Shown: one piece after another, positions 7,250-55,006 of the stretch
How the letters are laid out: each line of letters starts with the position of its first letter
How positions within the stretch are numbered: the first letter of the stretch is position 1
From: an uncultured Planctomycetia bacterium
GTDB lineage: Bacteria > Omnitrophota > Gorgyraeia > 2-02-FULL-51-18
Direction: 5' to 3'
Assembly: GCA_964374005.1 (NCBI GenBank)
Contig: CAYJXB010000001.1
Span: 1-58,378, forward strand
Length of the DNA stretch: 58,378 bases
The notes under the pieces: model-generated
The model's database searches: none
The model's input: only the letters and a program-made list of their open reading frames with translations
What the model was told of the DNA's origin: nothing
Translations under genes and position numbers: made by a program

Positions 7250-8302
7250 TTAATAGGGGACAGCGCCCTTTTTTTTCGAAAAAGGGCGCTGTCCCCTTTT
7301 TAAAATCAAGGCCGCTTCTTCCGAACGGCTTCGGTCGCAGATCAAAGTTCCCTGGCTTGTTTGGACCACCACGAGCTCCTGCGCTCCAAGAACCACTAAG
7401 GGTCTCTGATGGTAATTGACAAGAAGCGAGCGTTTTGTTTCTCGGTGGAAGGTTTGACCTTCAACAAAATTTTGGTTTCTGTCTTTGGAGGCCCTCTCCA
7501 AGAACATGCCCCAGCTCCCCATGTCGCACCAATCCATGCTCGTTTTCATCACAACGATATTATCCGCTTTCTCCAAGAGCGCGTAATCAATGGAGAGGTT
7601 GGGGAGATTTTTATAGCTATGGGCCGACCTACGGACCTCAAACCGGCGATAGACCCTCGACGCGAATTTTTGCATCGTGTCCAGAAAAACGCCGATTCTC
7701 CAAGTAAAAATTCCGGCATTCCACAAAAAATTACCCTGCCGAAGATAACGAGCCGCCAGACCAAAACCTGGTTTTTCCTTGAAACGCTTGACTTGATAGC
7801 CAAGCCCGGCGCTTTTGATTTTCCGGCCGCACTCAATGTATCCCAAGCCCATCGCCGGGAAAGTCGGCCGGATGCCGATCACGACGAGCGATCGGCTTTT
7901 TTGAGCAACCTCAATCGCGGCGCGCATCGTCTTTTTGAAAAGAACCTCATTTTTAATCAGATGATCCGCTGGAAAAAATGAAACGACTTCTTCCTTGCCG
8001 CACGCGTCGCTTAAGGCAAGACAGGAAAAGAGGATCGCGGAGGCGGTGTTGTTGCGGAAAGGTTCGACCAGGATATTGGAGGGCGCAAGGCGCGGAAGCT
8101 CCGCTTTGATAAGAGGGACATGCTCCTTGGTTGTGATCACATGGATTTTTTTTTGATCATAAACTTTCAAGAGCCGCCGGTAAGTTTTTTGCAAAAGAGA
8201 CGCCTTGCCGTCAAACTGGATACGGTATTTTGGAAATTGGCCGTGCGTGAGCGGCCAGAATCTCTCGCCTTGGCCGCCGGCCATGATGATTGCCTGTGCC
8301 AT
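7250..8302 (-). CDS. mannose-1-phosphate guanylyltransferase (nucleotidyltransferase family)
   Basis: IIMAGGQGERFWPLT sugar-nucleotidyltransferase N-terminus. 350 aa. Confidence 0.75.
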   Translation of the reverse strand: MAQAIIMAGGQGERFWPLTHGQFPKYRIQFDGKASLLQKTYRRLLKVYDQKKIHVITTKEHVPLIKAELPRLAPSNILVEPFRNNTASAILFSCLALSDACGKEEVVSFFPADHLIKNEVLFKKTMRAAIEVAQKSRSLVVIGIRPTFPAMGLGYIECGRKIKSAGLGYQVKRFKEKPGFGLAARYLRQGNFLWNAGIFTWRIGVFLDTMQKFASRVYRRFEVRRSAHSYKNLPNLSIDYALLEKADNIVVMKTSMDWCDMGSWGMFLERASKDRNQNFVEGQTFHRETKRSLLVNYHQRPLVVLGAQELVVVQTSQGTLICDRSRSEEAALILKRGQRPFSKKKGAVPY

Positions 8303-8303
8303 C

Positions 8304-9110
8304 TTATACCTTTACCTTTTTTCCTAACGCCTTTGCGAACGGGCGGATAAACTCTTTGGAAAATTTCGTCGCGCTGATCCCTGGGTGAGCCATGAGGGCG
8401 CGAACAACCACGCTTCCGATGATCACTCCGTCGGCCATTTGAGAAAGGGTCTTTGCCTGCGCCGGAGTGGAAACGCCGAAGCCCACGCAGACCGGAAGTC
8501 TCGTCTGACGGCGAATGGCCTTAAGATTACGGCGAACGTCCGACGCGAGGGTTTTCCTCGCCCCGGTGACGCCGGTCAACGAGACATAATAAACAAACCC
8601 ACGCGTGGCGCGGGTCACCTTCTTTTGTCTGGCGCGATCGCTTGTCGGGGCCAAAAGATAGATTAAATTGATTTTGTGGCATTCGAGGACAGGACTGATT
8701 TCCAGCCCCTCTTCCGGAGGCAGATCAGAAACGATCACGCCGTCCACTCCGGCGCGCGCTGCGTCTTTCGCAAAACGCTGAATCCCATAATGAAAAATCG
8801 GATTGAAATAGCTCATCAAAAGAATGGGGGCCTGGCTCTTTTTCCTTACGCGCGCCACTAATTTTATGATTTTCGCAAGGGTCGTTCCGTTTTTGAGCGC
8901 TCGTTGGGAAGATGCCTGAATGACGGGCCCGTCGGCAATCGGGTCGGAGAACGGGACACCCAATTCAACCAGATCCACGCCGTTTTTCTCAAAGGCAAGG
9001 ATCAGCGCCTCAGTTTTTTTAAGGCCGGGGTCACCCGCCGTAATAAAAACGACGAGTGCTTTTTTCTTTTCTCTTTTCAGAAACTCAAATTTTTTTTGAA
9101 TCCGGTTCAC
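8304..9110 (-). CDS. trpA: tryptophan synthase alpha chain
   Basis: FITAGDP, ELGVPFSDPIADGP. I place the start at GTG 9110..9108 (VNRIQKKFEFLK...), 7 nt after AGGAGG. The ORF-track extension to 9140 (MVGWKKGGGG) lies inside repeat F1-a. Confidence 0.93.
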   Translation of the reverse strand: MNRIQKKFEFLKREKKKALVVFITAGDPGLKKTEALILAFEKNGVDLVELGVPFSDPIADGPVIQASSQRALKNGTTLAKIIKLVARVRKKSQAPILLMSYFNPIFHYGIQRFAKDAARAGVDGVIVSDLPPEEGLEISPVLECHKINLIYLLAPTSDRARQKKVTRATRGFVYYVSLTGVTGARKTLASDVRRNLKAIRRQTRLPVCVGFGVSTPAQAKTLSQMADGVIIGSVVVRALMAHPGISATKFSKEFIRPFAKALGKKVKV

Positions 9111-9258
9111 CCCACCACCTCCTTTTTTCCACCCCACCACTTATTTTTTACGATTGCGAAGCAATCGGTTCGCTTCGCGAACAAAATAAGTGGTGGGGTA
9201 GAAAGATTCGCTACAAGCGAATCTAAAGATTCTTCGAATCTAAAAGGAGGTGGTGGGG
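9110..9258. repeat. F1-a: MITE-like palindromic element between trpB stop and trpA start (composite, contains a 67-bp core at 9132..9198)
   Basis: Arms CCCCACCACCTCCTTTT (9110-9126) and AAAAGGAGGTGGTGGGG (9242-9258), 17/17 complementary. TCA at 9107-9109 and 9259-9261. Internal hairpins CGATTGC/GCAATCG, GTTCGC/GCGAAC, AGATTCGC/GCGAATCT, AGATTC/GAATCT. Confidence 0.9.
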
Positions 9259-12186: not shown

Positions 12187-12755
12187 GGCCGGGTCAAGCT
12201 TAAGAAATTACGCAGGATCTCCTTGCCGCATTGCGTGAGAATGGATTCGGGGTGAAATTGCACGCCATAGATCGGCAACGTTTTATGCTGCAACCCCATA
12301 ATCTCCTTTTCTTTTGTCTCGGCCGTGATCGTCAAATCCTTCGGCAATGTTTTTCGCTCCACGAGGAGCGAATGATAACGCGTGGCGACAAAAGGGTTGT
12401 CGATGTTTTTGAACACCCCTTTGCCGTTGTGATAAATTTTAGAAGTTTTTCCGTGCATGAGCCGTTTGGCGCCCACGACCCTTCCTCCGAACACCTCGCC
12501 GATGCACTGATGCCCCAGGCAAACGCCCAAAATGGGTATCTTAGAGCCCAGTTGCTTGATCACCTCTTTCGAAACGCCCGCATCTTTCGGGCTTCCGGGA
12601 CCGGGCGAGATCACGATACGACTGGGTTTCGCTTTTTTTATTTCGCTGATGGTGATCGCGTCATTTCTCACCACTTTTAATTCTTGGCCCATTTCGCCCA
12701 AGTACTGCACGAGATTGTAGGTAAAAGAGTCGTAGTTATCAATCATCAGGATCAC
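12183..12755 (-). CDS. trpG: anthranilate synthase component II (glutamine amidotransferase)
   Basis: [30 protein letters not shown] start 12755..12753 at the edge of F1-b. Confidence 0.95.
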
Positions 12756-12903
12756 CCCACCACCTCCTTTTGAGACGACAACCCCACCACTTGTTTAGCC
12801 GCATAAGCGGCCGATTGCTCCGCAATCGTTGCAAATAAGTGGTGGGGCAAAGTCGTCTCGGCGCTACGCGCCTGAATTGAAAATTCTAAAGGAGGTGGTG
12901 GGG
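12755..12903. repeat. F1-b: palindromic element between trpE stop and trpG start (contains a core-like module at 12782..12847)
   Basis: Arms CCCCACCACCTCCTTT (from 12755) and AAAGGAGGTGGTGGGG (12888-12903). TCA at 12752-12754 and 12904-12906 (the latter is the trpE stop). Confidence 0.9.
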
Positions 12904-15553: not shown

Positions 15554-16266
15554 GTCCTCACCGCCTCCCGAAGCGTAAATTTATTTTCATAAAGCGCCGT
15601 GCCGATGATCACACCCTTAATATTTTCTTGTTTAAGGTCCATGATCCTGGTTAGATCGCCAAGAGAGCGGACGCCGCCGGAGGCGATCACATCCTTAGGG
15701 AACGCTTGGCTGAGATCCCGGATTTCTTTAAGATTGGGACCCTCCAAGGCGCCGTCTTTTGAAATATCCGTATAAATAATCGTTTGGCCGCCCAATGCCT
15801 GGACTGTTTTTGCCAAATCGGTGGCTTTCGTGTGCGTCAGCGTTGTCCAGCCATCCGTCGCGATGAACCCGTCAAGCGCGTCGATGCCTACGATCATCTT
15901 TTCACCCAATTCGGACAACGCCTCTTTGAGAAACCCTTGATCCAGGCACGCCTTCGTGCCTAAAGTCACCCACGCCGCTCCCATCTCGAGAATAGACGCG
16001 GCCGTCTCAATGCTTCGGATGCCGCCGCCGACTTCGAGCGGTGTGCGGACGGATTTCAATATTTTTTCGACCGAGCTGAGGTTCCTCGGCGTCCCGTGAA
16101 GCGCCCCGTCCAAATCCACGACATGGATCCTGGAAGCGCCCTCTTCCTCAAAGCGCTTGGCGATCTTTTCGGGACCGTCAAAGTAGACTTTCTCTTCTTT
16201 AAATTTTCCTTGGACCAGGCGGACTACCTTTCCGTCTTTCAAATCAATCGCGGGGATCGGGATCAC
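15535..16266 (-). CDS. hisA: ProFAR isomerase (HisA)
   Basis: [32 protein letters not shown] start 16266..16264 at the edge of F1-c. Confidence 0.94.
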
Positions 16267-16432
16267 CCCACCACCTCTTTTTTGGCTTCAGCCAAAGACG
16301 CGCATAGCGCGTCGAGGCGACGCTTTAAATCCGTCGTCCAACCTAAATAAAACTTTTTGTCTTCTAGACTGCGCATGAGATACACGTAAGCGCTATTTAC
16401 CGTGAGCGTCGCCTCAGAAAGAGGTGGTGGGG
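16266..16432. repeat. F1-c: palindromic element between hisH stop and hisA start
   Basis: Arms CCCCACCACCTCTTT (from 16266) and AAAGAGGTGGTGGGG (to 16432). TCA at 16263-16265 and 16433-16435. Internal 11-bp inverted repeat GAGGCGACGCT / AGCGTCGCCTC. Confidence 0.88.
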
Positions 16433-17053
16433 TCACCCCACCACCTCTTTTCGGTAATCAATAAAGTTTTTTATCACGCGAAGCCCCAACGTCTGGCTTT
16501 TTTCAGGATGAAACTGGGTGGCAAAAATATTTCCTTTCCAGACCGCGGAACAAAACGAAATCCCGTAGCTCGTGGTCGCCGCGACCCAGGACCGGTCCTC
16601 GGGATCCCCATAAAAAGAATGGACAAAATAAAAATGATCCCCATTTTTAACGCCTTTAAGAACGGGGCAATTTTTTTTAGCGAGTTTCAAAGTATTCCAG
16701 CCCATGTGGGGTATTTTGAATCGCCCTTGAAAGCGGCGCACGCGTCCATGGACGATATCGAAACCCTTGACTCTTTTTCCCTCTTCGCTTTCGCTGAAAA
16801 GCAGCTGAAGCCCCAGGCAAAGCCCCAGATACGGCGTGCCGCTGGTTATTTTTTCTTTAAGTGCTTCCACGAGGTTGAGGCGTTTGAGCTCTCTCATCGC
16901 ATGGGTAAAGGCCCCTACGCCCGGCAGGATGATTTTTTCCGCCTTTTTCACCTCGCTTTTCGCGGACGTGATCTTGACGCGCTCGCCGTGATGTTCAAAG
17001 GCTTTTTGCACGCTGCGCAAATTCCCCATACCGTAGTCTACGATGACAATCAC
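16433..17053 (-). CDS. hisH: imidazole glycerol phosphate synthase glutaminase subunit
   Basis: IVIVDYGMGNLRS, GLCLGLQ, QFHPEKS. The last codons (KEVVG-stop) are made of an F1-type arm. Confidence 0.94.
   Translation of the reverse strand: MIVIVDYGMGNLRSVQKAFEHHGERVKITSAKSEVKKAEKIILPGVGAFTHAMRELKRLNLVEALKEKITSGTPYLGLCLGLQLLFSESEEGKRVKGFDIVHGRVRRFQGRFKIPHMGWNTLKLAKKNCPVLKGVKNGDHFYFVHSFYGDPEDRSWVAATTSYGISFCSAVWKGNIFATQFHPEKSQTLGLRVIKNFIDYRKEVVG
16436..16451. repeat. Solo F1-type arm forming the last codons of hisH
   Basis: CCCCACCACCTCTTTT directly abuts the hisH stop, so 16421-16447 is the palindrome GAGGTGGTGGGG-TCA-CCCCACCACCTC. Confidence 0.8.
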
Positions 17054-24578: not shown

Positions 24579-25062
24579 GGATCAACCCTTGCAGAATCAG
24601 GTTCACCAATGCCCCGGCCGCTAAATCATCCCATACGATACTCAAAGGATTTGCATTCTTTTGAATCCGGCTGATCGGCCACGGCTTTAAGGTATCCAGC
24701 AAACGAAATAAAATAAAAGCGACGAGAAAGACCGCCGGTGTTTTAGGCAGCCACAAGACACTGAGCATCATTCCGCAGACCTCATCCAAGACAAAAGGAG
24801 TCGGATCTCTGGAGGCTACGAGGCCATCCACTGCCTCGGCCGACGTGCCGCGAGAGGAAACTCGCGGCTTTGAAGAAAACACGATCGTCGCGGATTTGCA
24901 TATCGCAAAACCCACCACGCAAAGCACCAGGGTTAGATAAGGAATAGCTCCGTAAAAATACCACGCGATCAGAAGCCCGGCGAGACTCCCGAAAGTGCCG
25001 GGGGCGAAAGGCAGATAACCCACATAAAAAAAAGAAGCAGCCGCCTTGACCCAGGCGCTCAT
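24556..25062 (-). CDS. pgpA: phosphatidylglycerophosphatase A
   Basis: GYLPFAPGTFGSL, FVLDEV.G, FRLLDTLKPWPI, WDDLAAG. ATG 25062..25060 at the edge of F2b-1. Confidence 0.88.
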   Translation of the reverse strand: MSAWVKAAASFFYVGYLPFAPGTFGSLAGLLIAWYFYGAIPYLTLVLCVVGFAICKSATIVFSSKPRVSSRGTSAEAVDGLVASRDPTPFVLDEVCGMMLSVLWLPKTPAVFLVAFILFRLLDTLKPWPISRIQKNANPLSIVWDDLAAGALVNLILQGLILTLGVPV

Positions 25063-25167
25063 CCCGTTAGACTCCTTACCAACAATGCGTTACTATTACT
25101 TATGCGATTCGCGGTTCGCTTGAAAACTGTTGCGCCACCGATATTGAAATTTAGGAGTCTAACGGGA
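25062..25167. repeat. F2b-1: 106-bp palindromic element between pgsA stop and pgpA start
   Basis: TCCCGTTAGACTCCTTACCAAC ... TTGAAATTTAGGAGTCTAACGGGA. CTCA at 25058-25061 and 25168-25171. Confidence 0.88.
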
Positions 25168-25168
25168 C

Positions 25169-25729
25169 TCATTCAAGCGTCTCTAGATTTTTTATCACGT
25201 AGCGAATGCCGCTCCAAAGAGTGATCGCCACAATAAAAAATAGGCTGAAATAAATAAGCCGGGTGGCGCTCGGAGTCCATTCGGGCCGCCAGACACTGGT
25301 TTCCTTCACGGCGAGAAACAGCAATACCCCCACGATCGCGGCAAACTGTAATACCGTTTTTTGCTTACCGCTTCCGCGCGCGGACTGCGAGTCCCCCAAA
25401 GAAGGCGGGATAAGCCGCCAGCTCGTGATCAGAAAATCTCTCGTGATGATCAACACCACCATCCAGGCGGGCATGATGCCCATTTGCACAAATGCCAGGA
25501 ACGCGGAGAGCGTCAGAATTTTGTCCGCAATCGGATCCATGAGTTGCCCGAAGCGGCTGACCTGGCCCCTTTCGCGGGCGAACTTGCCGTCCCAGTAATC
25601 CGTAAAAACGGCCAGGATGAACGTCGCAAGCGCCAGCGCCTTAGACAGCGCCCCCTGAACGGAAAGAAGGAGTATGAAAACGACGGTGAGAAGAATGCGA
25701 TAAAACGTTAAACGATTGGGAAGCGTCAC
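25169..25729 (-). CDS. pgsA: CDP-diacylglycerol--glycerol-3-phosphate 3-phosphatidyltransferase
   Basis: DYWDGKFARERGQVSRFGQLMDPIADK motif. GTG start 25729..25727 at the edge of F1-d. Confidence 0.9.
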   Translation of the reverse strand: MTLPNRLTFYRILLTVVFILLLSVQGALSKALALATFILAVFTDYWDGKFARERGQVSRFGQLMDPIADKILTLSAFLAFVQMGIMPAWMVVLIITRDFLITSWRLIPPSLGDSQSARGSGKQKTVLQFAAIVGVLLFLAVKETSVWRPEWTPSATRLIYFSLFFIVAITLWSGIRYVIKNLETLE

Positions 25730-25847
25730 CCCACCACTCCTTTCGTCCCACCACTTGTTTTTTGCGATCCGAAGGATCGGCCGCCGATGGCGGCAAAACA
25801 GGTGGTGGGACCAATCGCCTTGCGATTGTAAGAAAGAAGTGGTGGGG
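25729..25847. repeat. F1-d: palindromic element between rimO stop and pgsA start (inner module 25747..25809)
   Basis: Arms CCCCACCACTCCTTTC and GAAAGAAGTGGTGGGG (one G-U position in the transcript). TCA at 25726-25728 and 25848-25850. Confidence 0.88.
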
Positions 25848-27971: not shown

Positions 27972-30109
27972 TTTTTGGGCCGCTCCGCTAAAATCTCTCT
28001 CGGCTTGGCCCCGCGGTAAGGCCCTACCACGCCATCTTCTTCCATCATATCGATCAGCCGCGCGGCCCGCGTGTACCCCAGCCCCAATCGCCGCTGCACC
28101 ATTGAAACGGACGCTTGGCCAGTCTCCAGCACGACGCGCTTGGCTTCGTCATAAATCTCGTCGCGTTTAAAATCTCCGAAGGCCTGTTTTTTTTCCTGAG
28201 AGTGAATGACCGCCTCGTAATACGCCGGTTTTCTTTGAGACTTGATAAAATCGGTCACCCGCTCTATCTCTTTTTCCTGCACCCAGGCGCCTTGCGCGCG
28301 AGTCAATTTTGATTTTCGTGGGTCCATGAAAAGCAGATCTCCCCTTCCGAGCAGTTTATCGGCGCCGTTTTCATCAAGGATGGTCCTCGAATCCACCTTC
28401 GAGGCGACCTGAAACGCGATCCGCGCCGGGAAATTGGCTTTAATCACGCCCGTGATCACGTCCACCGAAGGCCTTTGAGTCGCTAGAATCATGTGGATCC
28501 CCACGGCCCTCGCTAGCTGCGCGATCCGCGTGATTGCCGTCTCCACTTCCTGCTGGGAAGAAAGGATAAGATCCGCAAGCTCATCAATCACGATGACGAT
28601 GTAGGGCAGCTTGAGTAATTGCGGATCAATCTCTTTATTCTGGACTTTTTCATTAAATATCGTGATATTTTTAGCGCTCACCTCCGACAATACCTTGTAG
28701 CGACGCTCCATTTCCGCCACGAGCCACGCGAGCGCCCCTGGCGCCTTCGCCTTGTCCGTGATCACGGGGGCGATCAGATGCGGCAGGTCATTATAAAAAT
28801 GAAGCTCGACCATTTTCGGGTCAATCATCAAAAATCTTACCTCCTCGGGGCTCGACTTGTACAAAATGCTCACGATAATGCTGTTGATGCAGACGCTCTT
28901 TCCCGTATTGGTCGCGCCCGCGATCAAGAGATGCGGCATATCGCTAAGATTATAGACGATCGGAGCGCCCGCCGTATCTTTACCGATCACCATCGCAATT
29001 TTCGACGGCTCGTTCTGAAAATCGCTCGACGCGAGCACTTCCCTGAGAGAAACGATCGCAGCAGACCCGTTTGGCACCTCAATGCCTACGCGCGATTTTC
29101 CGGGAATCGGGGCGACAATGCGGACGCTCGTTGCCCTCATCGCGAGCGCAATGTCGTTCTCGAGCGACGTGATGCGTTGAACTTTCACTCCCGCCGCCGG
29201 CTGTAATTCATAGCGTGTGATCGTGGGGCCTTGTTCCACTTCCACCACTTTAGCTTCGATATTAAAATCCCGAAGCGTGTCTTCCAGGACCCGGGAGCTA
29301 GTTTCTAAATCGGCTCTGGCCTTATTTTGGTCGACCGCGGGAGACGGCAGTAGAAGATCCAGGTCCGGCAATCGATAACTGCCGGCTGGCTCTTGGGACA
29401 TCATGGGCCGCTCTTTCGGCTTGGGCGCCGGCCAAAGGCCGGCTGGCCTCGCGGCCGGACCCCGGGTCTCGGGTCTTGTAGTTTCCGGTTTTTGCGCTAT
29501 CGTTTCTTTTATTTCAGGAAACTTGGGATGAATAATGGTTGTGCTCACCTTTTTTTTCCTGAAATCAAACAACGACGGCCAAGAAATTTTAAACCGTTTG
29601 AACAAACTCCCCGTCATTTGCAGAATCAAAAGCTCGGTTGCCAGAAGAATGGATAAAAGAAATAACGAAAGCGCCACAAAAACGCCCGCGCGTCCGAATA
29701 GATGGGATAAAAACAGGGAGCTAAAATAGCCCAGGACGCCGCCGGCCTGAAATCGCCCGATTTTCGTGCCTTCATTCAGCAGCGAAAAAAGCGCGCAGGA
29801 TGAGGCAAAAAATATGACGGTCGCGAAAAGCTTGAGCCATAGTTTTTGGCTTTTTTGGCCGAACCACTGGGCTAGCGCCCAAAATAAAAAAAGCGGAACT
29901 AGAAAATAAGAAGTCGTGCCAAAGAGAAGAATGAGAACCCAGGCCGTATAAGCGCCGGCGATCCCGACAAAATTGCGAGCGGGTGAATTCACGGAGGAAA
30001 CTTCGAAGGCAATATCGTTAGGCGTGTAAGACAAGAGCGCGAGTAACGTGAGGATGGACGTGATAAACCAGAAAAAGGCCAACACTTCGCTTCGTTTTTG
30101 TTCGTTCAC
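27968..30109 (-). CDS. ftsK: DNA translocase FtsK
   Basis: N-terminal TM helices, Walker A GATNTGKS, C-terminal gamma wHTH (MVQRRLGLGYTRAARLID). GTG start at the edge of F2b-2. Confidence 0.95.
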   Translation of the reverse strand: MNEQKRSEVLAFFWFITSILTLLALLSYTPNDIAFEVSSVNSPARNFVGIAGAYTAWVLILLFGTTSYFLVPLFLFWALAQWFGQKSQKLWLKLFATVIFFASSCALFSLLNEGTKIGRFQAGGVLGYFSSLFLSHLFGRAGVFVALSLFLLSILLATELLILQMTGSLFKRFKISWPSLFDFRKKKVSTTIIHPKFPEIKETIAQKPETTRPETRGPAARPAGLWPAPKPKERPMMSQEPAGSYRLPDLDLLLPSPAVDQNKARADLETSSRVLEDTLRDFNIEAKVVEVEQGPTITRYELQPAAGVKVQRITSLENDIALAMRATSVRIVAPIPGKSRVGIEVPNGSAAIVSLREVLASSDFQNEPSKIAMVIGKDTAGAPIVYNLSDMPHLLIAGATNTGKSVCINSIIVSILYKSSPEEVRFLMIDPKMVELHFYNDLPHLIAPVITDKAKAPGALAWLVAEMERRYKVLSEVSAKNITIFNEKVQNKEIDPQLLKLPYIVIVIDELADLILSSQQEVETAITRIAQLARAVGIHMILATQRPSVDVITGVIKANFPARIAFQVASKVDSRTILDENGADKLLGRGDLLFMDPRKSKLTRAQGAWVQEKEIERVTDFIKSQRKPAYYEAVIHSQEKKQAFGDFKRDEIYDEAKRVVLETGQASVSMVQRRLGLGYTRAARLIDMMEEDGVVGPYRGAKPREILAERPKK

Positions 30110-30214
30110 CCCGTTAGACTCCTTACCAACATTGAGTTACCCTTATCGACACGATTCGTTGCGAGCCCAGAAACTTTTGCGTTGCCAATCTTGAAATTTA
30201 GGAGTCTAACGGGG
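30109..30214. repeat. F2b-2: 106-bp palindromic element between dut stop and ftsK start
   Basis: CCCCGTTAGACTCCTTACCAAC ... TTGAAATTTAGGAGTCTAACGGGG. TTCA at 30105-30108 and 30215-30218. Its ends match F2b-1 while the centre has diverged. Confidence 0.88.
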
Positions 30215-30215
30215 T

Positions 30216-35071: not shown

Positions 35072-35187
35072 AACTCAAAACTTAAAAGGTAAAACGCAAA
35101 ACTTTTGGGTCACTCCGTGACCTGTAATCAACCCAGGTCGCGAAGCGACACAATAGTTTTACGTTTTTAGTTTTAAGTTTTACGTTT
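35072..35187. repeat. F3-A: long hairpin element between xerD and rbfA
   Basis: A/T-rich arms built of AAAACG/GTTTTA-type units (AACTCAAAACTTAAAAGGTAAAACGCAAAAC ... AGTTTTACGTTTTTAGTTTTAAGTTTTACGTT) around hairpins GGTCAC-TCC-GTGACC and GTCGC-GAA-GCGAC. Confidence 0.8.
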
Positions 35188-39684: not shown

Positions 39685-39724
39685 GGATTTGAACTGGGAC
39701 GGGTTCAAATCCCCCAATCCCGAC
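39685..39724. repeat. Two further tRNA-Pro T-arm/acceptor fragments in opposite orientations, forming a 10-bp perfect inverted repeat
   Basis: GGATTTGAAC (39685-39694) and GTTCAAATCC (39703-39712). The plus-sense string GGGTTCAAATCCC-CCA-ATCCCGAC (39701-39724) matches the tRNA 3' half GGGTTCAAATCCC-TGC-ATCCCGAC. Confidence 0.75.
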
Positions 39725-39736
39725 TAATGTGAAATA

Positions 39737-39814
39737 TGGTCGGGATGCAGGGATTTGAACCCTGGACCTCCTGGTCCCGAACCAGGCGCGCTAGCCAAAC
39801 TGCGCTACATCCCG
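39737..39814 (-). tRNA. tRNA-Pro (anticodon CGG), CCA encoded
   Basis: Minus-strand read CGGGATG TA GCGC AGTTTGGCTA GCGC G CCTGG TTCGGGA CCAGG AGGTC CAGGG TTCAAAT CCCTG CATCCCG A CCA. This gives a complete cloverleaf with 7/4/5/5-bp stems and anticodon loop TTCGGGA. Confidence 0.95.
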
Positions 39815-40035
39815 ATTTAAACTCAAATAGTATACTTAAATTTATACGCGCCTGCCAGCGCTCGAAGCGAAGGCCCTCAAGGCCGAAGCGGAGTGCCGCA
39901 AGCAAGAGCTTGCGGCCTAGCCCCCGCCACAAAGCTCGTCGGGTCCGTCTCAAAAATCGCGGCGAGATTTGTGGACGGGTCCGCCGCGCTTTTTGGCGGA
40001 AAGCTGAGCCACGCCCCGTAATCTTGAACATTTAA

Positions 40036-42470: not shown

Positions 42471-43322
42471 TTACACCGTGATTAAGAAATTATCGATGAG
42501 CCTGACGTTTCCAAAGAAAACCGCGAGCGCTATCAGGATTTTCTGGCGGTTTTTCAATTCTACCACAGGTTCGAGCGTCTGGGCATCGACAATTTCAACA
42601 TAGTCGATTTTGAGATGCCGCGCGTTTTTTAGCACCTCTTTGACTCTCTTTTTGATCTTAGACGCATCGGCCACGCCGCTCTTGACTAAATCCGAGCCTC
42701 GTTGCAGCGCCCGGTACAAAAAAGGCGCCTCTTGCCGCTCGGGGGCCGACAACAAGACATTGCGTGAACTCATCGCGAGCCCATTGGGCTCTCGGACGAT
42801 GGGCGCCATTCTCACGCGGACCGGAAAATCCAGGTCCTTCACCATTTGCTCAATGAGTCGAAACTGCTGATAGTCCTTCTGGCCCAGATAAATCGTATCG
42901 GGCATGACAATATTTAAAAGTTTCAAAACGACAGTCGCCACGCCGACGAAATGGGACGGGCGTGAAACGCCGCACAACCCTTGAGCGAAGTTTTTGACCG
43001 AGACCGACGTTTGAAAATCTTCCGGATAAAACTCCCTCACACGCGGTGTAAAAAGAAAATTAATCTTTTCCTTTCGTAAAAGTTCGGTGTCTTTTCCCAG
43101 ATCTCTTGGGTATCGCCAAAAATCATCAAGGGGACCGAATTGCAATGGGTTCACAAAGATGCTGACCACGGTCGCCTTGTTCTCCTTCTTTGCCTGACGG
43201 ACAAGCGAGAGATGGCCTTCGTGAAGATACCCCATCGTCGGCACAAAACCAATCGCGCGGCGGCGTTTCCTTAAAGCCTGAAGCGCGTTTCTAAGCTCCT
43301 GAGAATGGCGTATAACTCTCAC
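42471..43322 (-). CDS. panC: pantoate--beta-alanine ligase
   Basis: [19 protein letters not shown] start 43322..43320 at the edge of F1-e. Confidence 0.94.
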
Positions 43323-43431
43323 CCCACCACCTTCTTTGTTTCACCGCGACGCCCAATGACACCAAGAGCGGTGAAAGGATTCGCCGCAGGCGAATCCAAG
43401 GATTCTTCGAATCTAAAAGAAGGTGGTGGGG
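43322..43431. repeat. F1-e: palindromic element between folK and panC
   Basis: Arms CCCCACCACCTTCTTT and AAAGAAGGTGGTGGGG (16/16). TCA at 43319-43321 and 43432-43434. Shares GATTCTTCGAATCTAAAAG with F1-a. Confidence 0.9.
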
Positions 43432-45079: not shown

Positions 45080-45805
45080 TTATCTCTCTTTTTTTAAGAC
45101 GTCGGAAATGTTGTAGAAACCTGGTTTCTTGCCGGCTAAAAAAAGGGCTGCGTCGAGCGCGCCATTCGCAAATGCATCCCGAGACTCTGCATGATGAGAA
45201 AGCGTGAACGTCTCTCCGGGGCCACTAAAGATCACGGTATGATCGCCAACGATCTCATCTTGGCGAATGACGTGAACCTCGTTTTCCATTTCTGCGGCCC
45301 TGGCTGGATTCCAACCCTTTGCTTTTGCGATTGCCTGCACAATTTTTTTGGCTGTTCCGCTCGGTCTGTCCTTTTTATGTATATGATGGGCTTCGGCGAT
45401 CTTAATGCTATAGGACTTACCAAATTTTGTGGCGGCTAAGGCTGCCAGCTCGATAAGGGAATTGGCCCCACGACTCATGTTTGGTGACAAAAGGACTGGG
45501 ATTTTCTCCGAGGCTTTCTTTACTTCCGATTCGATTTTTTCACCAAGGCCTGTGGTTGCAATCACAATGGCTGTCTTGGCTTCGAGACACGCTTTGAGAG
45601 CTTCTCGGGTCCCTTCGGGCAGCGAAAAATCAATTAAAACATTAGCCCCTTTTAAAGCTTCGGCCGATGGTTTATCATTTTGATCAAACACGGCGACGAT
45701 CTTAAAATCCTTTGAATCGCGCGCCAATGAAAGGATCCGCGTCCCCATGCGCCCAAGCGCACCGTTCACCGCGATTTTTACCCCGTTAGAAATCTTCTTA
45801 TTCAT
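45080..45805 (-). CDS. dapB: 4-hydroxy-tetrahydrodipicolinate reductase
   Basis: KIAVNGALGRMG. I place the start at ATG 45805..45803, 7 nt after AGGAGA. The ORF-track GTG at 45829 lacks a comparable SD. Confidence 0.9.
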   Translation of the reverse strand: MNKKISNGVKIAVNGALGRMGTRILSLARDSKDFKIVAVFDQNDKPSAEALKGANVLIDFSLPEGTREALKACLEAKTAIVIATTGLGEKIESEVKKASEKIPVLLSPNMSRGANSLIELAALAATKFGKSYSIKIAEAHHIHKKDRPSGTAKKIVQAIAKAKGWNPARAAEMENEVHVIRQDEIVGDHTVIFSGPGETFTLSHHAESRDAFANGALDAALFLAGKKPGFYNISDVLKKER

Positions 45806-45862
45806 ACCATTATCTCCTGTTGTCACCACCCACCGTCAAAGCATGATTTCTAACGGGGTGAA
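45781..45862. repeat. F2a-2: palindromic element between dapA stop and the ancestral dapB start, now partly coding
   Basis: CCCCGTTAGAAATC (45781-45794) and GATTTCTAACGGGGTGAA (45845-45862). Flanks are TTA (45778-45780, degenerate) and TCA (45863-45865). Confidence 0.8.
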
Positions 45863-46747
45863 TCATGACCTTCCCTTGACTTTCAAGCCGTAAGTTTTCA
45901 TGGCCTGCGTCAAGATTTTTTGGTTTCGGGGCTGCATCGGCGAAAGCGGCAGACGAAGCTCCTCGCGGCAAAGCCCCATCAAACCCATGGCCTTCTTAAT
46001 CGGGATCGGATTTGTTTCAATAAATAGGGCGCGGCACAAAGGAAACATTTTATAATGAAGCTCCCGGGCTCTCTGGAAGCTCCCGGCAAAATAAGCGTCC
46101 ACCATTTCCGAAACCGCCTGTGGCACGATGTTGGCGATCACCGAAATGACCCCTTTGGCGCCCAAGGCCATTAAAGGTAAGGTCAGGGAATCATCGCCGC
46201 TTAAGACCGTGATATCGCATAAGGATAAAATGTGAGAGGTCTGGTCCATGCTGCCGGTCGCTTCTTTGATCCCCACGATATTTTTTATTTTTGACAATCG
46301 CGCGACCGTCTCAGGAATCAGCGTCACGCCCGTGCGACCGGGGACATTGTAAAGAATGATGGGAATATTCACTTTTCGGGCAACTTTTTCATAATGCCGG
46401 TAGAGCCCTTCCTGCGTCGGACGGTTGTAATACGGCGTGACCATCAACGCGCCGTCGGCGCCTGCTTTTTTCGCGAACTTCGTCAGCGAAATAGCCTCTT
46501 CCGTACTATTGGAACCCGTGCCCGCTATCACCGGGACTTCGTGGCTGGCCGCCTCGACCACCACCTTCATCACGCGTTCGTGTTCTTTGTGCGACAACGT
46601 GGGGCTCTCGCCTGTCGTGCCGGCCGGCACGATGCCGTCGGTGCCCGATCGAATATGAAACCGCACAAGCTTCGCCAAGGCCTTTTCATCCACTTTTCCG
46701 TTCCTAAACGGCGTCACAATGGCCACGATCGAACCATGAAATTTCAC
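45863..46747 (-). CDS. dapA: 4-hydroxy-tetrahydrodipicolinate synthase
   Basis: IVAIVTPF, GTTGES, IVGIKEATGS (Schiff-base Lys). GTG start at the edge of F1-f. Confidence 0.95.
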   Translation of the reverse strand: MKFHGSIVAIVTPFRNGKVDEKALAKLVRFHIRSGTDGIVPAGTTGESPTLSHKEHERVMKVVVEAASHEVPVIAGTGSNSTEEAISLTKFAKKAGADGALMVTPYYNRPTQEGLYRHYEKVARKVNIPIILYNVPGRTGVTLIPETVARLSKIKNIVGIKEATGSMDQTSHILSLCDITVLSGDDSLTLPLMALGAKGVISVIANIVPQAVSEMVDAYFAGSFQRARELHYKMFPLCRALFIETNPIPIKKAMGLMGLCREELRLPLSPMQPRNQKILTQAMKTYGLKVKGRS

Positions 46748-46862
46748 CCCACCACCTCCTTTTTTCCACTGCCCACTTTATCCTCCCACCACGCAAAGGC
46801 AGTGGAAGAATCCGCCAAAAGCGGATTCGTCAATCTAATAGATTGTAAAGGAGGTGGTGGGG
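46747..46862. repeat. F1-f: palindromic element between dapF stop and dapA start
   Basis: Arms CCCCACCACCTCCTTT and AAAGGAGGTGGTGGGG. TCA at 46744-46746 and 46863-46865 (the latter is the dapF stop). Confidence 0.9.
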
Positions 46863-47675
46863 TCATAACTTCACTCTCCCCTCAAACGTCGTTTGAACAG
46901 GACCTTCCAGACAGACGTCAGAAAACTTCCCACCCTTTCTTGAGAAATAAACCTTCAAGATCTCCCCACCTTTTGTGCGGACGAGCACAGGAGATTTCAA
47001 ACCCTTTAAAGCGGCCGCCACGAGCGCCGCAGCGGTAGATCCCGTGCCGCATGAAAGCGTCTCTCCCTCGACGCCGCGCTCATAAGTCCGTACCTCTATG
47101 GTATTCTGTGATCCCAGACAAACAAAATCAGCGTTGGTCCCTCTGGGGGCAAAATAAGGATGGCGCCGGATCTCGCGCCCAAACCGATCCACATCCACAC
47201 CCCTCAAAGAATCCACGAATTTCACGGCGTGCGGCACGCCGGTATCGATGAAATTCAATATTTCATTCCTCCCGTTGACCTGGAGGCTGAAATTCAACTT
47301 GAGGCTTTTGGGCTTCGCCAATTTGGCCGTGACGATATTTTTGCGGACCTCCGCCCCGATGATCCCCGCGAGCGTTTCGATGGACAACCGACCCTTTTTC
47401 ATCTTATGATCCGCCAAGAATTTTGCGGCACAGCGGACTCCATTGCCGCACATCTGGGCCTGGCTTCCGTCAGGGTTAAAAATCCGCATCTTGACGTCGG
47501 CCTTTTTTGATTTGTCTAAAAGGATCAGGCCGTCCGCTCCGATCGAATATTTGCGCTCCGACAATTTTTTGGCTATTTTTGCCGCGTCGTTCCCGATGAC
47601 TCCCGAACGATTATCCACGACGATAAAATCATTGCCCGCCGCCGCCATTTTCGTAAACGGACAGCCAGCCATCAA
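46863..47675 (-). CDS. dapF: diaminopimelate epimerase
   Basis: FTKMAAAGNDFIVVDN, MCGNG, SCGTGS. Confidence 0.94.
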   Translation of the reverse strand: MMAGCPFTKMAAAGNDFIVVDNRSGVIGNDAAKIAKKLSERKYSIGADGLILLDKSKKADVKMRIFNPDGSQAQMCGNGVRCAAKFLADHKMKKGRLSIETLAGIIGAEVRKNIVTAKLAKPKSLKLNFSLQVNGRNEILNFIDTGVPHAVKFVDSLRGVDVDRFGREIRRHPYFAPRGTNADFVCLGSQNTIEVRTYERGVEGETLSCGTGSTAAALVAAALKGLKSPVLVRTKGGEILKVYFSRKGGKFSDVCLEGPVQTTFEGRVKL

Positions 47676-52647: not shown

Positions 52648-52716
52648 CCCCACCACCTGTTTTCTACGATTGCTACAAGCAATCGGTCTGCTTCGCGGAC
52701 AAAACAGGTGGTGGGG
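52648..52716. repeat. F1-g: 69-bp core-only F1 element inserted in the 3' end of argD
   Basis: CCCCACCACCTGTTTT ... AAAACAGGTGGTGGGG (16/16) enclosing hairpins CGATTGC-TACA-GCAATCG and GTCTGC/GCGGAC. TCA at 52645-52647 and 52717-52719. Collinear with 9132..9198. Confidence 0.9.
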
Positions 52717-54915: not shown

Positions 54916-55006
54916 TCAGAAGTCAGATGACAGAAGTCAGAAAGCAAAAAGCAGTTTCTGTCTTCTGTCATCTGTCCTCTGTTTTCTGATCATTGTCTTC
55001 TGACTT
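54916..55006. repeat. F4: long imperfect hairpin built of CAGAAG/TCTGAC-type short repeats between argJ and argB
   Basis: TCAGAAGTCAGATGACAGAAGTCAGAAAGC (54916-54945), AAAAA loop, GCAGTTTCTGTCTTCTGTCATCTGTCC (54951-54977), then further TCTGA/TTCTGAC units. Single copy in the window. Confidence 0.7.

Follow-up and report, generated by a model that had tools for sequence, protein, structure and literature searches.

The window (the whole stretch of DNA analyzed here, 58,378 nt or 58 kb of contig CAYJXB010000001.1 from an uncultured bacterium) carries the genes dapF and dapA of a lysine/diaminopimelate (DAP) operon, and all genes around their junction lie on the minus strand. The two genes are separated by a 116-nt element bounded by inverted repeats, one copy of a repeat family designated below as F1. 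The segment following the dapF TGA in the transcript, CCCCACCACCUCCUUU, is perfectly complementary to AAAGGAGGUGGUGGGG, whose final G opens the GUG start codon of dapA; 84 nt separate the left arm (46862–46847) from the right arm (46762–46747). The open reading frame (ORF) which traverses the element from the displaced dapA start is referred to as the relay ORF. The features of the locus are as follows.

46863–47675, minus strand: dapF (diaminopimelate epimerase), the upstream gene (PF01678, E = 2e-49)
46864–46866, minus strand: displaced ancestral dapA start ATG, which forms ATGA together with the dapF stop; the relay ORF now begins here
46863–46865, minus strand: dapF stop TGA, the left copy of the 3-bp target-site duplication (reads ...GTT A/TGA)
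46744–46866, minus strand: relay ORF, 40 codons plus stop, MTPPPPLQSIRLTNPLLADSSTAFAWWEDKVGSGKKEVVG
46847–46862, minus strand: left terminal inverted repeat CCCCACCACCTCCTTT, the "anti-SD-like" arm (SD, Shine–Dalgarno sequence); codes for relay residues 2–7 (TPPPPL)
46831–46845, minus strand: internal hairpin 1, CAATCTATTAGATTG (minimum free energy (MFE) structure)
46808–46828, minus strand: internal hairpin 2, GAATCCGC-TTTT-GGCGGATTC (MFE structure and subfamily alignment)
46764–46807, minus strand: internal hairpin 3, TTCCACTGCC...GGCAGTGGAA, with a variable loop (MFE structure and subfamily alignment)
46747–46762, minus strand: right terminal inverted repeat AAAGGAGGTGGTGGGG; codes for the KEVVG end of the relay ORF
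46745–46747, minus strand: new dapA start GTG, composed of the last G of the element and the TG of the duplicated TGA
46744–46746, minus strand: right TGA copy, the stop of the relay ORF, overlapping the dapA GTG as GTGA
45863–46747, minus strand: dapA (4-hydroxy-tetrahydrodipicolinate synthase), the downstream gene (PF00701, E = 7e-102)

Since the left TGA contributes its A and the right one its T to a further base pair, the inverted repeat extends to 17 bp (46746–46762/46847–46863) with 100% complementarity. Its right half offers dapA a strong SD, with the core GGAGG at 46759–46755 and a 7-nt spacer to the GTG at 46747–46745, just as an earlier note on this DNA had read it. The 9-nt motif AAGGAGGTG (46761–46753) is the full complement of the canonical 16S rRNA tail CACCUCCUU. 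The earlier note also described the left arm as a mimic of that tail; the arm does contain CACCUCCUU, but any perfect complement of a 9-nt SD resembles an anti-SD, so that the likeness is not an independent observation. Moreover, only the canonical bacterial tail served for this comparison, since the 16S rRNA of the organism was found neither in the window nor in the fetched loci. The rebuilt GTG occupies the same frame and position as the dapA ATG of the relatives (GGGG/TGAAATTTCATGG in the window vs. ATGAaatttcatgg in the locus L158), and the PF00701 match to dapA begins at residue 2.

The closest homologs of the window DapA belong to Candidatus Omnitrophota. Four relatives, whose DapA proteins are 92, 81, 79, and 77% identical to that of the window, all possess the operon argH-lysA-dapF-dapA-dapB-aminotransferase-folK-panC with a 4-nt dapF/dapA overlap. 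Their junction is free of the element and reads ATGA in L156, L158, and L159 and GTGA in L161, dapA starting right there. A comparison of gtgaagttATGAaatttcatgg in L158 with GTGAAGTTATGA[116 nt]TGAAATTTCATGG in the window shows what sets the window apart from the bare overlap of the relatives: 116 nt have been inserted into an ancestral ATGA, and the TGA has been duplicated. The same relation between filled and empty sites recurs at a GTGA overlap (filled in L139, empty in L127) and at the folK/panC junction, where the window copy 43322–43431 corresponds to a bare ATGA in L156 and L161. The 116-nt element (46747–46862) is, therefore, a mobile insertion into an ATGA overlap accompanied by duplication of the TGA.

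One arm scan each of the GTDB genomes and the JGI metagenomes revealed paired F1 arms only in Omnitrophota and in "uncultured Planctomycetia" metagenome-assembled genomes, and in groundwater or sediment metagenomes. The window and the fetched loci together yielded 76 distinct elements of 35–167 nt, plus full-length forms of 317–323 nt. The window itself contains seven F1 copies, and the arm motif is matched there 14 times (with at most two mismatches) against 0.09 matches expected. The terminal inverted repeats (TIRs) retain 16 bp over 75 copies. Hence, the supposition of the earlier note that a mobile repeat brings both halves of the stem is borne out by the number of copies, the target-site duplication (TSD), and the empty sites. 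The possibility of a phage origin was considered and rejected: F1 gave six chance-like single-arm matches and no paired arms in IMG/VR, and the F2 repeats (see below) gave no matches in this database.

The flanks of the element are as characteristic as its arms. Direct repeats of the form TGA...TGA border all the distinct copies and 87–88 of approximately 103 arm pairs, and the form TGA...TCA never occurs; this represents a TSD signature, unbiased for the second flank. The base 5' of the left TGA is A in 59 copies, G in 11, T in 5, and C in 1 (76 copies), matching the first base of the old start codon in an NTGA overlap. At the other end, the frame which begins with the last G of the element and the following TG continues without a stop beyond 100 codons in about 70 of the 76 copies, indicating that the right end contributes both an SD and the initial base from which a start codon is rebuilt. 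In variants with a T..A instead of a C..G terminal pair (L151; L124 at trpG; the window copy of the F2b family ending at 25062), the rebuilt start is ATG. The host junctions are otherwise unrelated (trp, his, folK/panC, pyruvate kinase, glycosyltransferases, nrdR, efflux pump), NTGA being all they have in common. The interior, which varies strongly between the copies, follows the direction of the host genes in 127 of 132 long matches.

The hallmark of the interior is its reading frame. The frame of the old start codon reads ATG ACC CCA CCA CCT CCT ... and ends exactly at the right TGA. The element length is 2 mod 3 in 67 of the 76 copies and in 24 of the 30 length classes (binomial p = 2e-7), and the relay frame is stop-free in 72/76 copies, as compared with 25–54% in the other five frames and 31% in shuffled interiors. 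In 67 copies out of 76, the relay ORF is complete, running from MTPPPP to KEVVG and the stop. Some of these ORFs are annotated by gene callers, and a functional micro-protein for the sake of which the frame is kept might be imagined behind such a record of completeness and annotation. This explanation is scarcely probable: outside the arm-coded ends (MTPPPP.., ..KEVVG), the peptides are diverse, vary from 12 to 56 aa, and fall into unrelated subfamilies, and the conserved nucleotides are those of hairpin stems with compensatory changes. The micro-protein idea was rejected because no peptide conservation extends beyond the arms; selection seems to favor translation through the element, not the peptide. 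A TAG located just after the left arm in the third forward frame was also tried as a part of the general design and abandoned, being frequent but inconsistent among the copies.

The full-length form (317–323 nt) has the same ends and consists of a single ORF bounded by the 16-bp TIRs, which themselves code for its N-terminus (M-TPPP) and its C-terminus (KEVVG and the stop). In L049 (3507–3833), it reads ATGA/CCCCACCACCTCTTTC...GAAAGAGGTGGTGGGG/TGA and comprises a single 108-aa ORF, which opens with the captured ATG and closes at the right TGA; full-length ORFs are also present in L111, L150, L151, and L154, each of them located inside an operon. Three full-length copies were seen in context, within unrelated operons (glycosyltransferases; glyA/nrdR; efflux pump). 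The 4-nt overlaps of this ORF with both flanking genes are clearest in L155; in L150, L151, and L154, the gene finder places one flanking junction differently.

The ORF matches the GIY-YIG nuclease family PF01541 with E = 2.6e-16. The closest solved structures by sequence are the UPF0213 proteins 1zg2 and 1ywl; the match to SLX1 is weak, and TIGR01453 gives 21.6 bits against a cut-off of 56.05. About 54 homologs (47–94% identity) all begin with M[T/I]PPP and end with [KRQN][EQ]VVG, and the homologs lacking the arms are 84–90 aa long, without both terminal extensions. The catalytic residues Y19, Y30, G32, R40, H44, and E64 are invariant in 37 sequences. The parent protein (104–120 aa) comprises the catalytic domain alone, with no linked NUMOD, helix–turn–helix (HTH), or Zn-finger domain and no C-terminal Asn of the UvrC+ lineage, and judging from its sequence, it belongs to the "minimal, Slx1-like" bacterial GIY-YIG group, i.e., it is a Slx1/UPF0213-like nuclease. 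This group has been regarded as vertically inherited, the selfish GIY-YIG proteins being derived from the UvrC+ lineage (Dunin-Horkawicz et al., PMC1564403).

Short and full-length forms are connected by intermediates. The relay frame of the window copy 16266–16432 codes for the N-terminal half of the GIY-YIG domain, and its relay ORF corresponds to the GIY-YIG gene with an internal segment deleted in frame (VTPPPLSEATLTVNSAYVYLMRSLEDKKFYLGWTTDLKRRLDA/...); further in-frame deletion derivatives were found in L124, L140, and L060. The relay peptide of the 116-nt copy retains no GIY-YIG core. Having the same ends as the full-length form and being linked to it by in-frame deletion derivatives, the F1 repeats are miniature inverted-repeat transposable elements (MITEs) of a GIY-YIG-encoding element. 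The partner with identical ends exists, but its sole ORF is the GIY-YIG nuclease, not a recognized transposase, and this protein is the putative mobilizing enzyme. Three annotated GIY-YIG proteins (P0029, P0034, and P0052) read ...EVVGDPTTS...KEVVG; they look like a full-length element and a MITE fused by the loss of a G at GGGG/TGA/CCCC, which would imply tandem insertions into a regenerated GTGA.

The earlier note had proposed folding of the junction RNA. The transcript of 46875–46735 (minus strand) has a predicted fold of −78.3 kcal/mol, in which an outer stem of 17 bp encloses three hairpins, as compared with −38.0 ± 4.0 kcal/mol for shuffled sequences (z = −10.1; 0 of 200 shuffles were as stable). 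The pairing of hairpin 1 is kept with compensatory changes in an alignment of a 7-sequence subfamily. In the free RNA, the computed probability that the SD is unpaired, P(SD unpaired), is 0.00. The arrangement foreseen in that note, with the ribosome-binding site (RBS) of the downstream gene buried in the stem and the upstream stop and downstream start codons juxtaposed at its base, agrees with this fold.

Such a highly structured and conserved-looking four-way junction in an amino-acid biosynthesis operon might be taken for a cis-regulatory RNA evolved by the host for lysine/DAP synthesis (a riboswitch, thermometer, attenuator, or protein-binding site). Very little probability attaches to this explanation, since the element is missing from the same junction in the four close relatives, resides at many unrelated gene pairs, is highly variable inside, and shows neither an Rfam family nor a terminator-like tail. 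At the gathering score, Rfam 15 detected only tRNA-Pro in the window; a permissive Rfam scan of the element returned only plant miRNA-precursor noise (16.7 bits vs. 93). No promoter, intrinsic terminator, or tandem repeat was found at the locus.

The earlier note supposed that a ribosome terminating at the dapF TGA melts the arm and frees the SD. In such a two-part "gate", termination alone would suffice, and the reading frame would be irrelevant. The stop codon does abut the arm, lying together with the start at the base of a perfect 17-bp stem, and P(SD unpaired) in constrained folding reaches 0.48 if the ribosome at the dapF stop shields 12 nt past the TGA. It is only 0.04 if 9 nt are shielded, the anti-SD core being located 10–14 nt past the stop. 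With a ribosome on relay codons 3–6, the value amounts to 0.68–0.75. The helicase point of the ribosome lies at about +11 and the edge of its footprint at about +15 from the P site, and the sequestering arm corresponds to codons 2–7 of the relay ORF. The terminating-ribosome explanation also leaves unaccounted for the 24 of 30 length classes that are 2 mod 3, the 72/76 open frames, and the fixed orientation; in the window copy 43322–43431, the same design is found although the upstream gene is read in another frame and has its stop elsewhere, not at the base of the stem. We consider it unlikely. The constrained folding suggests that the stem would be opened by the ribosome translating the relay ORF, not by the one terminating at dapF. 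What stands of the proposed coupling is the sequestered SD and its probable opening by translation that depends on the upstream gene: with stop and start juxtaposed and the SD sequestered in silico, dependence of downstream translation on upstream translation is the most reasonable reading. Both the relay ORF and its GIY-YIG parent were absent from the earlier account.

The conservation of the arms bears on the same question. GGAGG is kept in 52 of the 76 right arms, CCTCC in 38 of the 76 left arms, and among the mismatched arm pairs, the right arm agrees with the consensus in 17 cases and the left arm in 4. The better conservation of the SD than of the anti-SD arm suggests selection on the SD as such. 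Both arms changed alike in 11 copies, and the subfamily alignment displays nine pairs with compensatory changes, two of them in the SD/anti-SD segment.

Overall, we consider it likely that the 116-nt element is a non-autonomous MITE of a GIY-YIG element that inserted into the ATGA overlap and donated an SD, a start codon, and a relay ORF. ATGA overlaps are known to provide strict termination–reinitiation coupling (Huber 2019, PMC6728339). Insertion into the dapF/dapA overlap duplicated the TGA and left dapF its stop codon; the old dapA start, along with any coupling or SD it had relied on, now opens an ORF as long as the element. The right end supplies a perfect 9-nt SD, a 7-nt spacer, and the G which rebuilds a GTG in the original dapA frame. 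Because the ends are inverted repeats, this SD and start would be locked in the 17-bp stem with the segment following dapF. Ribosomes that complete dapF could start anew on the ATGA overlap and enter the relay ORF; in moving across relay codons 2–7 they would melt the stem, and termination at the GTGA overlap beside the freed strong SD would lead to the initiation of dapA. In this way, the translational coupling of the operon would be passed on through the insertion. In the full-length copies, the same layout would express the nuclease parasitically from the host coupling signal. The scheme turns on two putative steps, namely translation of the relay ORF and the formation in vivo of a stem controlling access to dapA.

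Several observations weigh against this interpretation. The copies are related by descent, so that the counts are not fully independent; at the same time, the 30 length classes and the subfamilies argue for many independent indels. In 9 of the 76 copies, the relay ORF is incomplete, and their downstream genes are apparently intact. No precedent was found for a 108-aa GIY-YIG protein without a DNA-binding domain mobilizing an element with TIRs and TSD. The right arm of L087 lacks GGAGG and its left arm has changed to match, so the SD is not indispensable everywhere. The two strands show no clear difference in computed stability (MFE −58.8 kcal/mol sense vs. −57.9 antisense, p = 0.06, 75 copies), and the G.U and A.C mismatches at arm positions 10–16 number 19 vs. 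16. Lacking a clear strand asymmetry, the inverted repeat may serve mobility, the RNA stem being a mere side-effect for translation.

Taken to its limit, the last point becomes an explanation of its own: the inverted repeat would matter at the DNA level only, as transposon ends or a cruciform that the nuclease recognizes. The stem in the mRNA would play no regulatory part, and dapA would be initiated de novo on its strong SD each time the stem breathes or a passing ribosome happens to open it. In favor of this view, TIRs combined with a TSD and an autonomous partner characterize transposable elements, arm covariation persists in L087 despite the loss of its SD, and no strand asymmetry pointing to selection at the RNA level was detected. 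But 16–17 G+C-rich bp close a fold of −78 kcal/mol, and with P(SD unpaired) at 0.00, initiation without assistance is expected to be very inefficient. Such stems precede essential biosynthetic genes (dapA, trpG, hisA, and panC), and the conservation of the reading frame shows selection on translation through the element. The constraints on frame, stop codons, and orientation are left unaccounted for by this explanation too. The DNA-only explanation is, in our estimate, improbable, somewhat more so than the terminating-ribosome one.

F1 unites known kinds of elements: the MITE, the intercistronic repeat, and the selfish nuclease gene. Among the intercistronic repeats, mycobacterial interspersed repetitive units (MIRUs) are the closest in position, being operon repeats of 40–100 bp, co-transcribed and with ORF ends overlapping the neighbors (Supply et al. 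1997, as presented in Delihas 2011, PMC3184786). Like F1, they exhibit filled and empty sites, short flanking direct repeats, imperfect TIRs, and G+C-rich internal inverted repeats. F1 likewise sits between cistrons, its relay ORF overlapping at the 5' end as ATGA and at the 3' end as GTGA. MIRUs often form tandem arrays (variable number tandem repeats, VNTRs, with 46–101-bp units), whereas F1 occurs as single TIR-bounded units with no tandem repeat at the locus. MIRUs also belong to a different phylum than the F1 host. For MIRUs, neither an autonomous partner nor an enzyme is known, and we are aware of no report that they have a terminal stem of SD and anti-SD, duplicate TGA specifically, or donate a start codon.

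The bacterial MITEs Correia/NEMIS, ERIC/IRU, Nezha, RUP, and BOX are covered by two reviews (Delihas 2008, 2011; PMC2229807, PMC3184786). They resemble F1 in being small and multicopy, in having TIRs and TSD, and in forming long RNA stem-loops that are co-transcribed and sometimes fused to host ORFs. Known MITEs are derived from DDE-type insertion sequence (IS) elements, and most of their insertions lie between operons or in TA-type target sites. In the full-text literature, no MITE was found that targets an NTGA overlap, rebuilds a start codon from its final base and the TSD, or is kept as a complete in-frame cistron. The Neisseria REP2 and the Borrelia inverted repeats (IR) supply an RBS plus ATG (Delihas 2011, PMC3184786); in contrast to F1, REP2 possesses a promoter and no TIRs, resides outside gene overlaps, and has an RBS without an anti-SD partner within the element. 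IS200/IS605-PATE and REP/RAYT differ from F1 in having subterminal hairpins, no TSD, and an HUH (Y1) transposase, as opposed to terminal repeats, TGA duplication, and a GIY-YIG parent.

Rickettsia palindromic elements (RPEs) are palindromic selfish repeats that persist as open reading frames, in-frame inside host protein genes. Those repeats (Ogata et al. 2000, cited in PMC3184786) join the host protein, whereas F1 forms a separate cistron, and its inserted length, TSD included, is not divisible by 3.

Among selfish nuclease genes, the free-standing GIY-YIG/HNH homing endonuclease genes seg and mob of T4-like phages are situated between conserved genes (Edgell 2010, PMC2988022). Several of them overlap the upstream ORF, with a presumed expression by translational coupling, and hairpins sequestering the RBS take part in their regulation (PMC2988022). 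The full-length F1 parent has the GIY-YIG catalytic domain of the I-TevI/Seg type with its conserved residues. The T4 enzymes carry DNA-binding domains and belong to the I-TevI/UvrC+ lineage, whereas the F1 parent is a catalytic domain alone and Slx1-like; the T4 genes home to one cognate site each, and F1 occupies dozens of unrelated junctions; the T4 genes have no known TIRs, TSD, or MITE derivatives, and their hairpins silence the RBS of the endonuclease itself, not that of a downstream host gene.

In MS2 coat/replicase, rpmI-rplT, and the ermC-type leaders, the downstream SD resides in a stem opened by translation of the other strand of that stem. In F1, the SD and start are sequestered by a translated segment likewise, here in silico only; the known structure-gated systems were evolved by the host or phage at single loci, whereas F1 delivers the whole device (the sequestering arm, the SD, the base for the start codon, and the relay ORF) ready-made at many loci. 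As a further likeness, both ends of the relay ORF have the 4-nt overlap that is a classical signal for reinitiation. The combination of all F1 traits, i.e., TIRs, TGA duplication at NTGA, start reconstruction, an SD/anti-SD stem, a relay cistron, and a GIY-YIG parent, was not found described in the full-text literature, a coverage outside of which most subscription journals lie.

The other F1 copies of the window are as follows.

9110–9258, minus strand: sister F1 copy, 149 nt; its relay ORF is complete, and the downstream GTG lies at 9110–9108
12755–12903, minus strand: sister F1 copy, 149 nt, at a trpE/trpG-like junction
16266–16432, minus strand: sister F1 copy, 167 nt, at the hisH/hisA junction
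25729–25847, minus strand: sister F1 copy, 119 nt, in a GTGA overlap
43322–43431, minus strand: sister F1 copy, 110 nt, at folK/panC, in the ATGA of the panC start
52648–52716, minus strand: short F1-type element, 69 nt, without SD, not 2 mod 3, with TGA/TGA flanks

The short element 52648–52716 is located in the 3' end of the upstream ORF, where it replaces the C-terminus of the protein (...EEERRL-TPPPVLSAKQTDCL before the stop); the downstream gene retains its own SD and ATG. The copy 43322–43431 truncates folK at a TAG six codons inside the element, and in the relatives, folK and panC overlap by 32 nt. Copies 9110–9258, 12755–12903, and 25729–25847 contain an inner inverted repeat, CCCCACCACTTATTTT...AAAATAAGTGGTGGGG, similar to the outer arms and without TGA flanks; this inner repeat of the longer copies may represent a nested insertion or duplicated protein-binding sites.

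The family also displays signs of loss and turnover. In the window, hisH is fused in the relay frame to a solo right arm (16433–16450) and ends with ...NFIDYRKEVVG and the stop; in L101 (approximately 1319–1343), a solo right arm occupies the ortholog of a filled site, the protein ending with ...SREVVG. Solo right arms look like deletion scars which restore a GTGA overlap; the restored hisH overlap was struck again, by the GIY-YIG copy 16266–16432. A list of solo arms over all loci was discarded, as it contained chance matches in unrelated phyla, only L101 and the window hisH arm being supported by orthology or context. Three junctions are filled both in the window and in L124 (81% nucleotide identity), with element lengths differing by 33, 36, and 36 nt, in line with the conserved relay frame; the presence of another length or subfamily at the same three junctions in L124 suggests turnover or repeated hits there.

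Almost all window genes lie on one strand; of their 57 junctions, 12 are 4-nt overlaps and about 10 contain F1 or F2 elements. The F2 family, with the ends CCCCGTTAGA, was not found in any fetched locus, and no parent of it came to light. F2b (25062–25168 and 30108–30215, minus strand) has the ends (C/T)CCCGTTAGACTCCT and AGGAGTCTAACGGG(G/A) and an F1-like design: ATGA on the left, TGA on the right, and AAGGAG 9 nt before the rebuilt start. Both its relay ORFs are complete (MNPVRLLNF...LVRSLTG and MSPVRLLNF...LVRSLTG, each followed by a stop), and in the 25062 copy, the compensated T..A terminal pair makes the rebuilt start ATG, not GTG. F2a (852–940 and 45777–45862, minus strand) has the ends TTCACCCCGTTAGAAAT and ATTTCTAACGGGGTGAA, and its frame from the old ATG stops early. 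The second F2a copy is located at dapA/dapB, where the gap in the relatives is 0–5 nt; its rebuilt GTG has mutated to GTA, and the apparent start of dapB is an ATG within the element (45805), by which the protein gains MNKKISNGV.

Other repeats of the window belong to different categories. Directly downstream of tRNA-Pro (39737–39814), at 39701–39762, 24 nt from its 3' part recur in inverted orientation (GGGTTCAAATCCCC...). This copy overlaps a small ORF (39705–40031) and could be an integration-site remnant. An intergenic A/T-rich imperfect palindrome of 53 nt (35072–35186) and an intergenic 27-nt palindrome, CAGAAGTCAGATGACAGAAGTCAGAAA (54917–54981), are unrelated to F1/F2. A perfect 22-bp G+C hairpin with T/A-run flanks at a gene boundary (7252–7300) is terminator-like on both strands.

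The only public contig with the exact DapA, L001 (Logan ERR4904390), is 1,050 nt long and equals window positions 45723–46772; one of its ends falls within the F1 arm, and the opposite end lies shortly beyond the F2a element. Contigs shorter than 2 kb also carry most of the full-length GIY-YIG homologs, and the F1/F2 repeats seem to fragment short-read assemblies. The consequences for annotation are similar in kind: gene callers misplace starts beside the elements, relay ORFs are annotated as hypothetical proteins, and deletion scars put "...KEVVG" tails on host proteins.

The chance that the parent represents a previously unrecognized class of autonomous mobile elements of very small size is substantial. 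A broader reading, judged jointly and tentatively at a little below an even chance, regards the 317–323-bp unit as a new class of autonomous prokaryotic element, by far the smallest known, in which a structure-specific nuclease would act on the end hairpin or cruciform and the TGA. According to the same joint reading, the unit would be a "translational parasite" that takes over the start codon and coupling of the host and repays them with a replacement SD and start, locked until its own ORF is translated; the N-terminal PPPP, dependent on elongation factor P (EF-P), could stall the ribosome on the anti-SD arm and render downstream expression EF-P-sensitive.

If the relay interpretation is true, selfish DNA can colonize the 4-nt stop/start overlaps of essential operons, the most compact part of bacterial genomes and one that seems beyond reach, without polar damage, owing to a translational relay it carries, i.e., an SD, a start-codon base, and an open frame. 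The window junctions containing F1/F2 elements (about 10) roughly equal the intact 4-nt overlaps (12/57) in number. The element would also be a natural portable part for strictly coupled synthetic operons. For the minimal bacterial GIY-YIG (UPF0213/Slx1-like) proteins, a widespread family with no assigned function, earlier seen as vertically inherited repair enzymes (PMC1564403), it would mean a tie to mobility.

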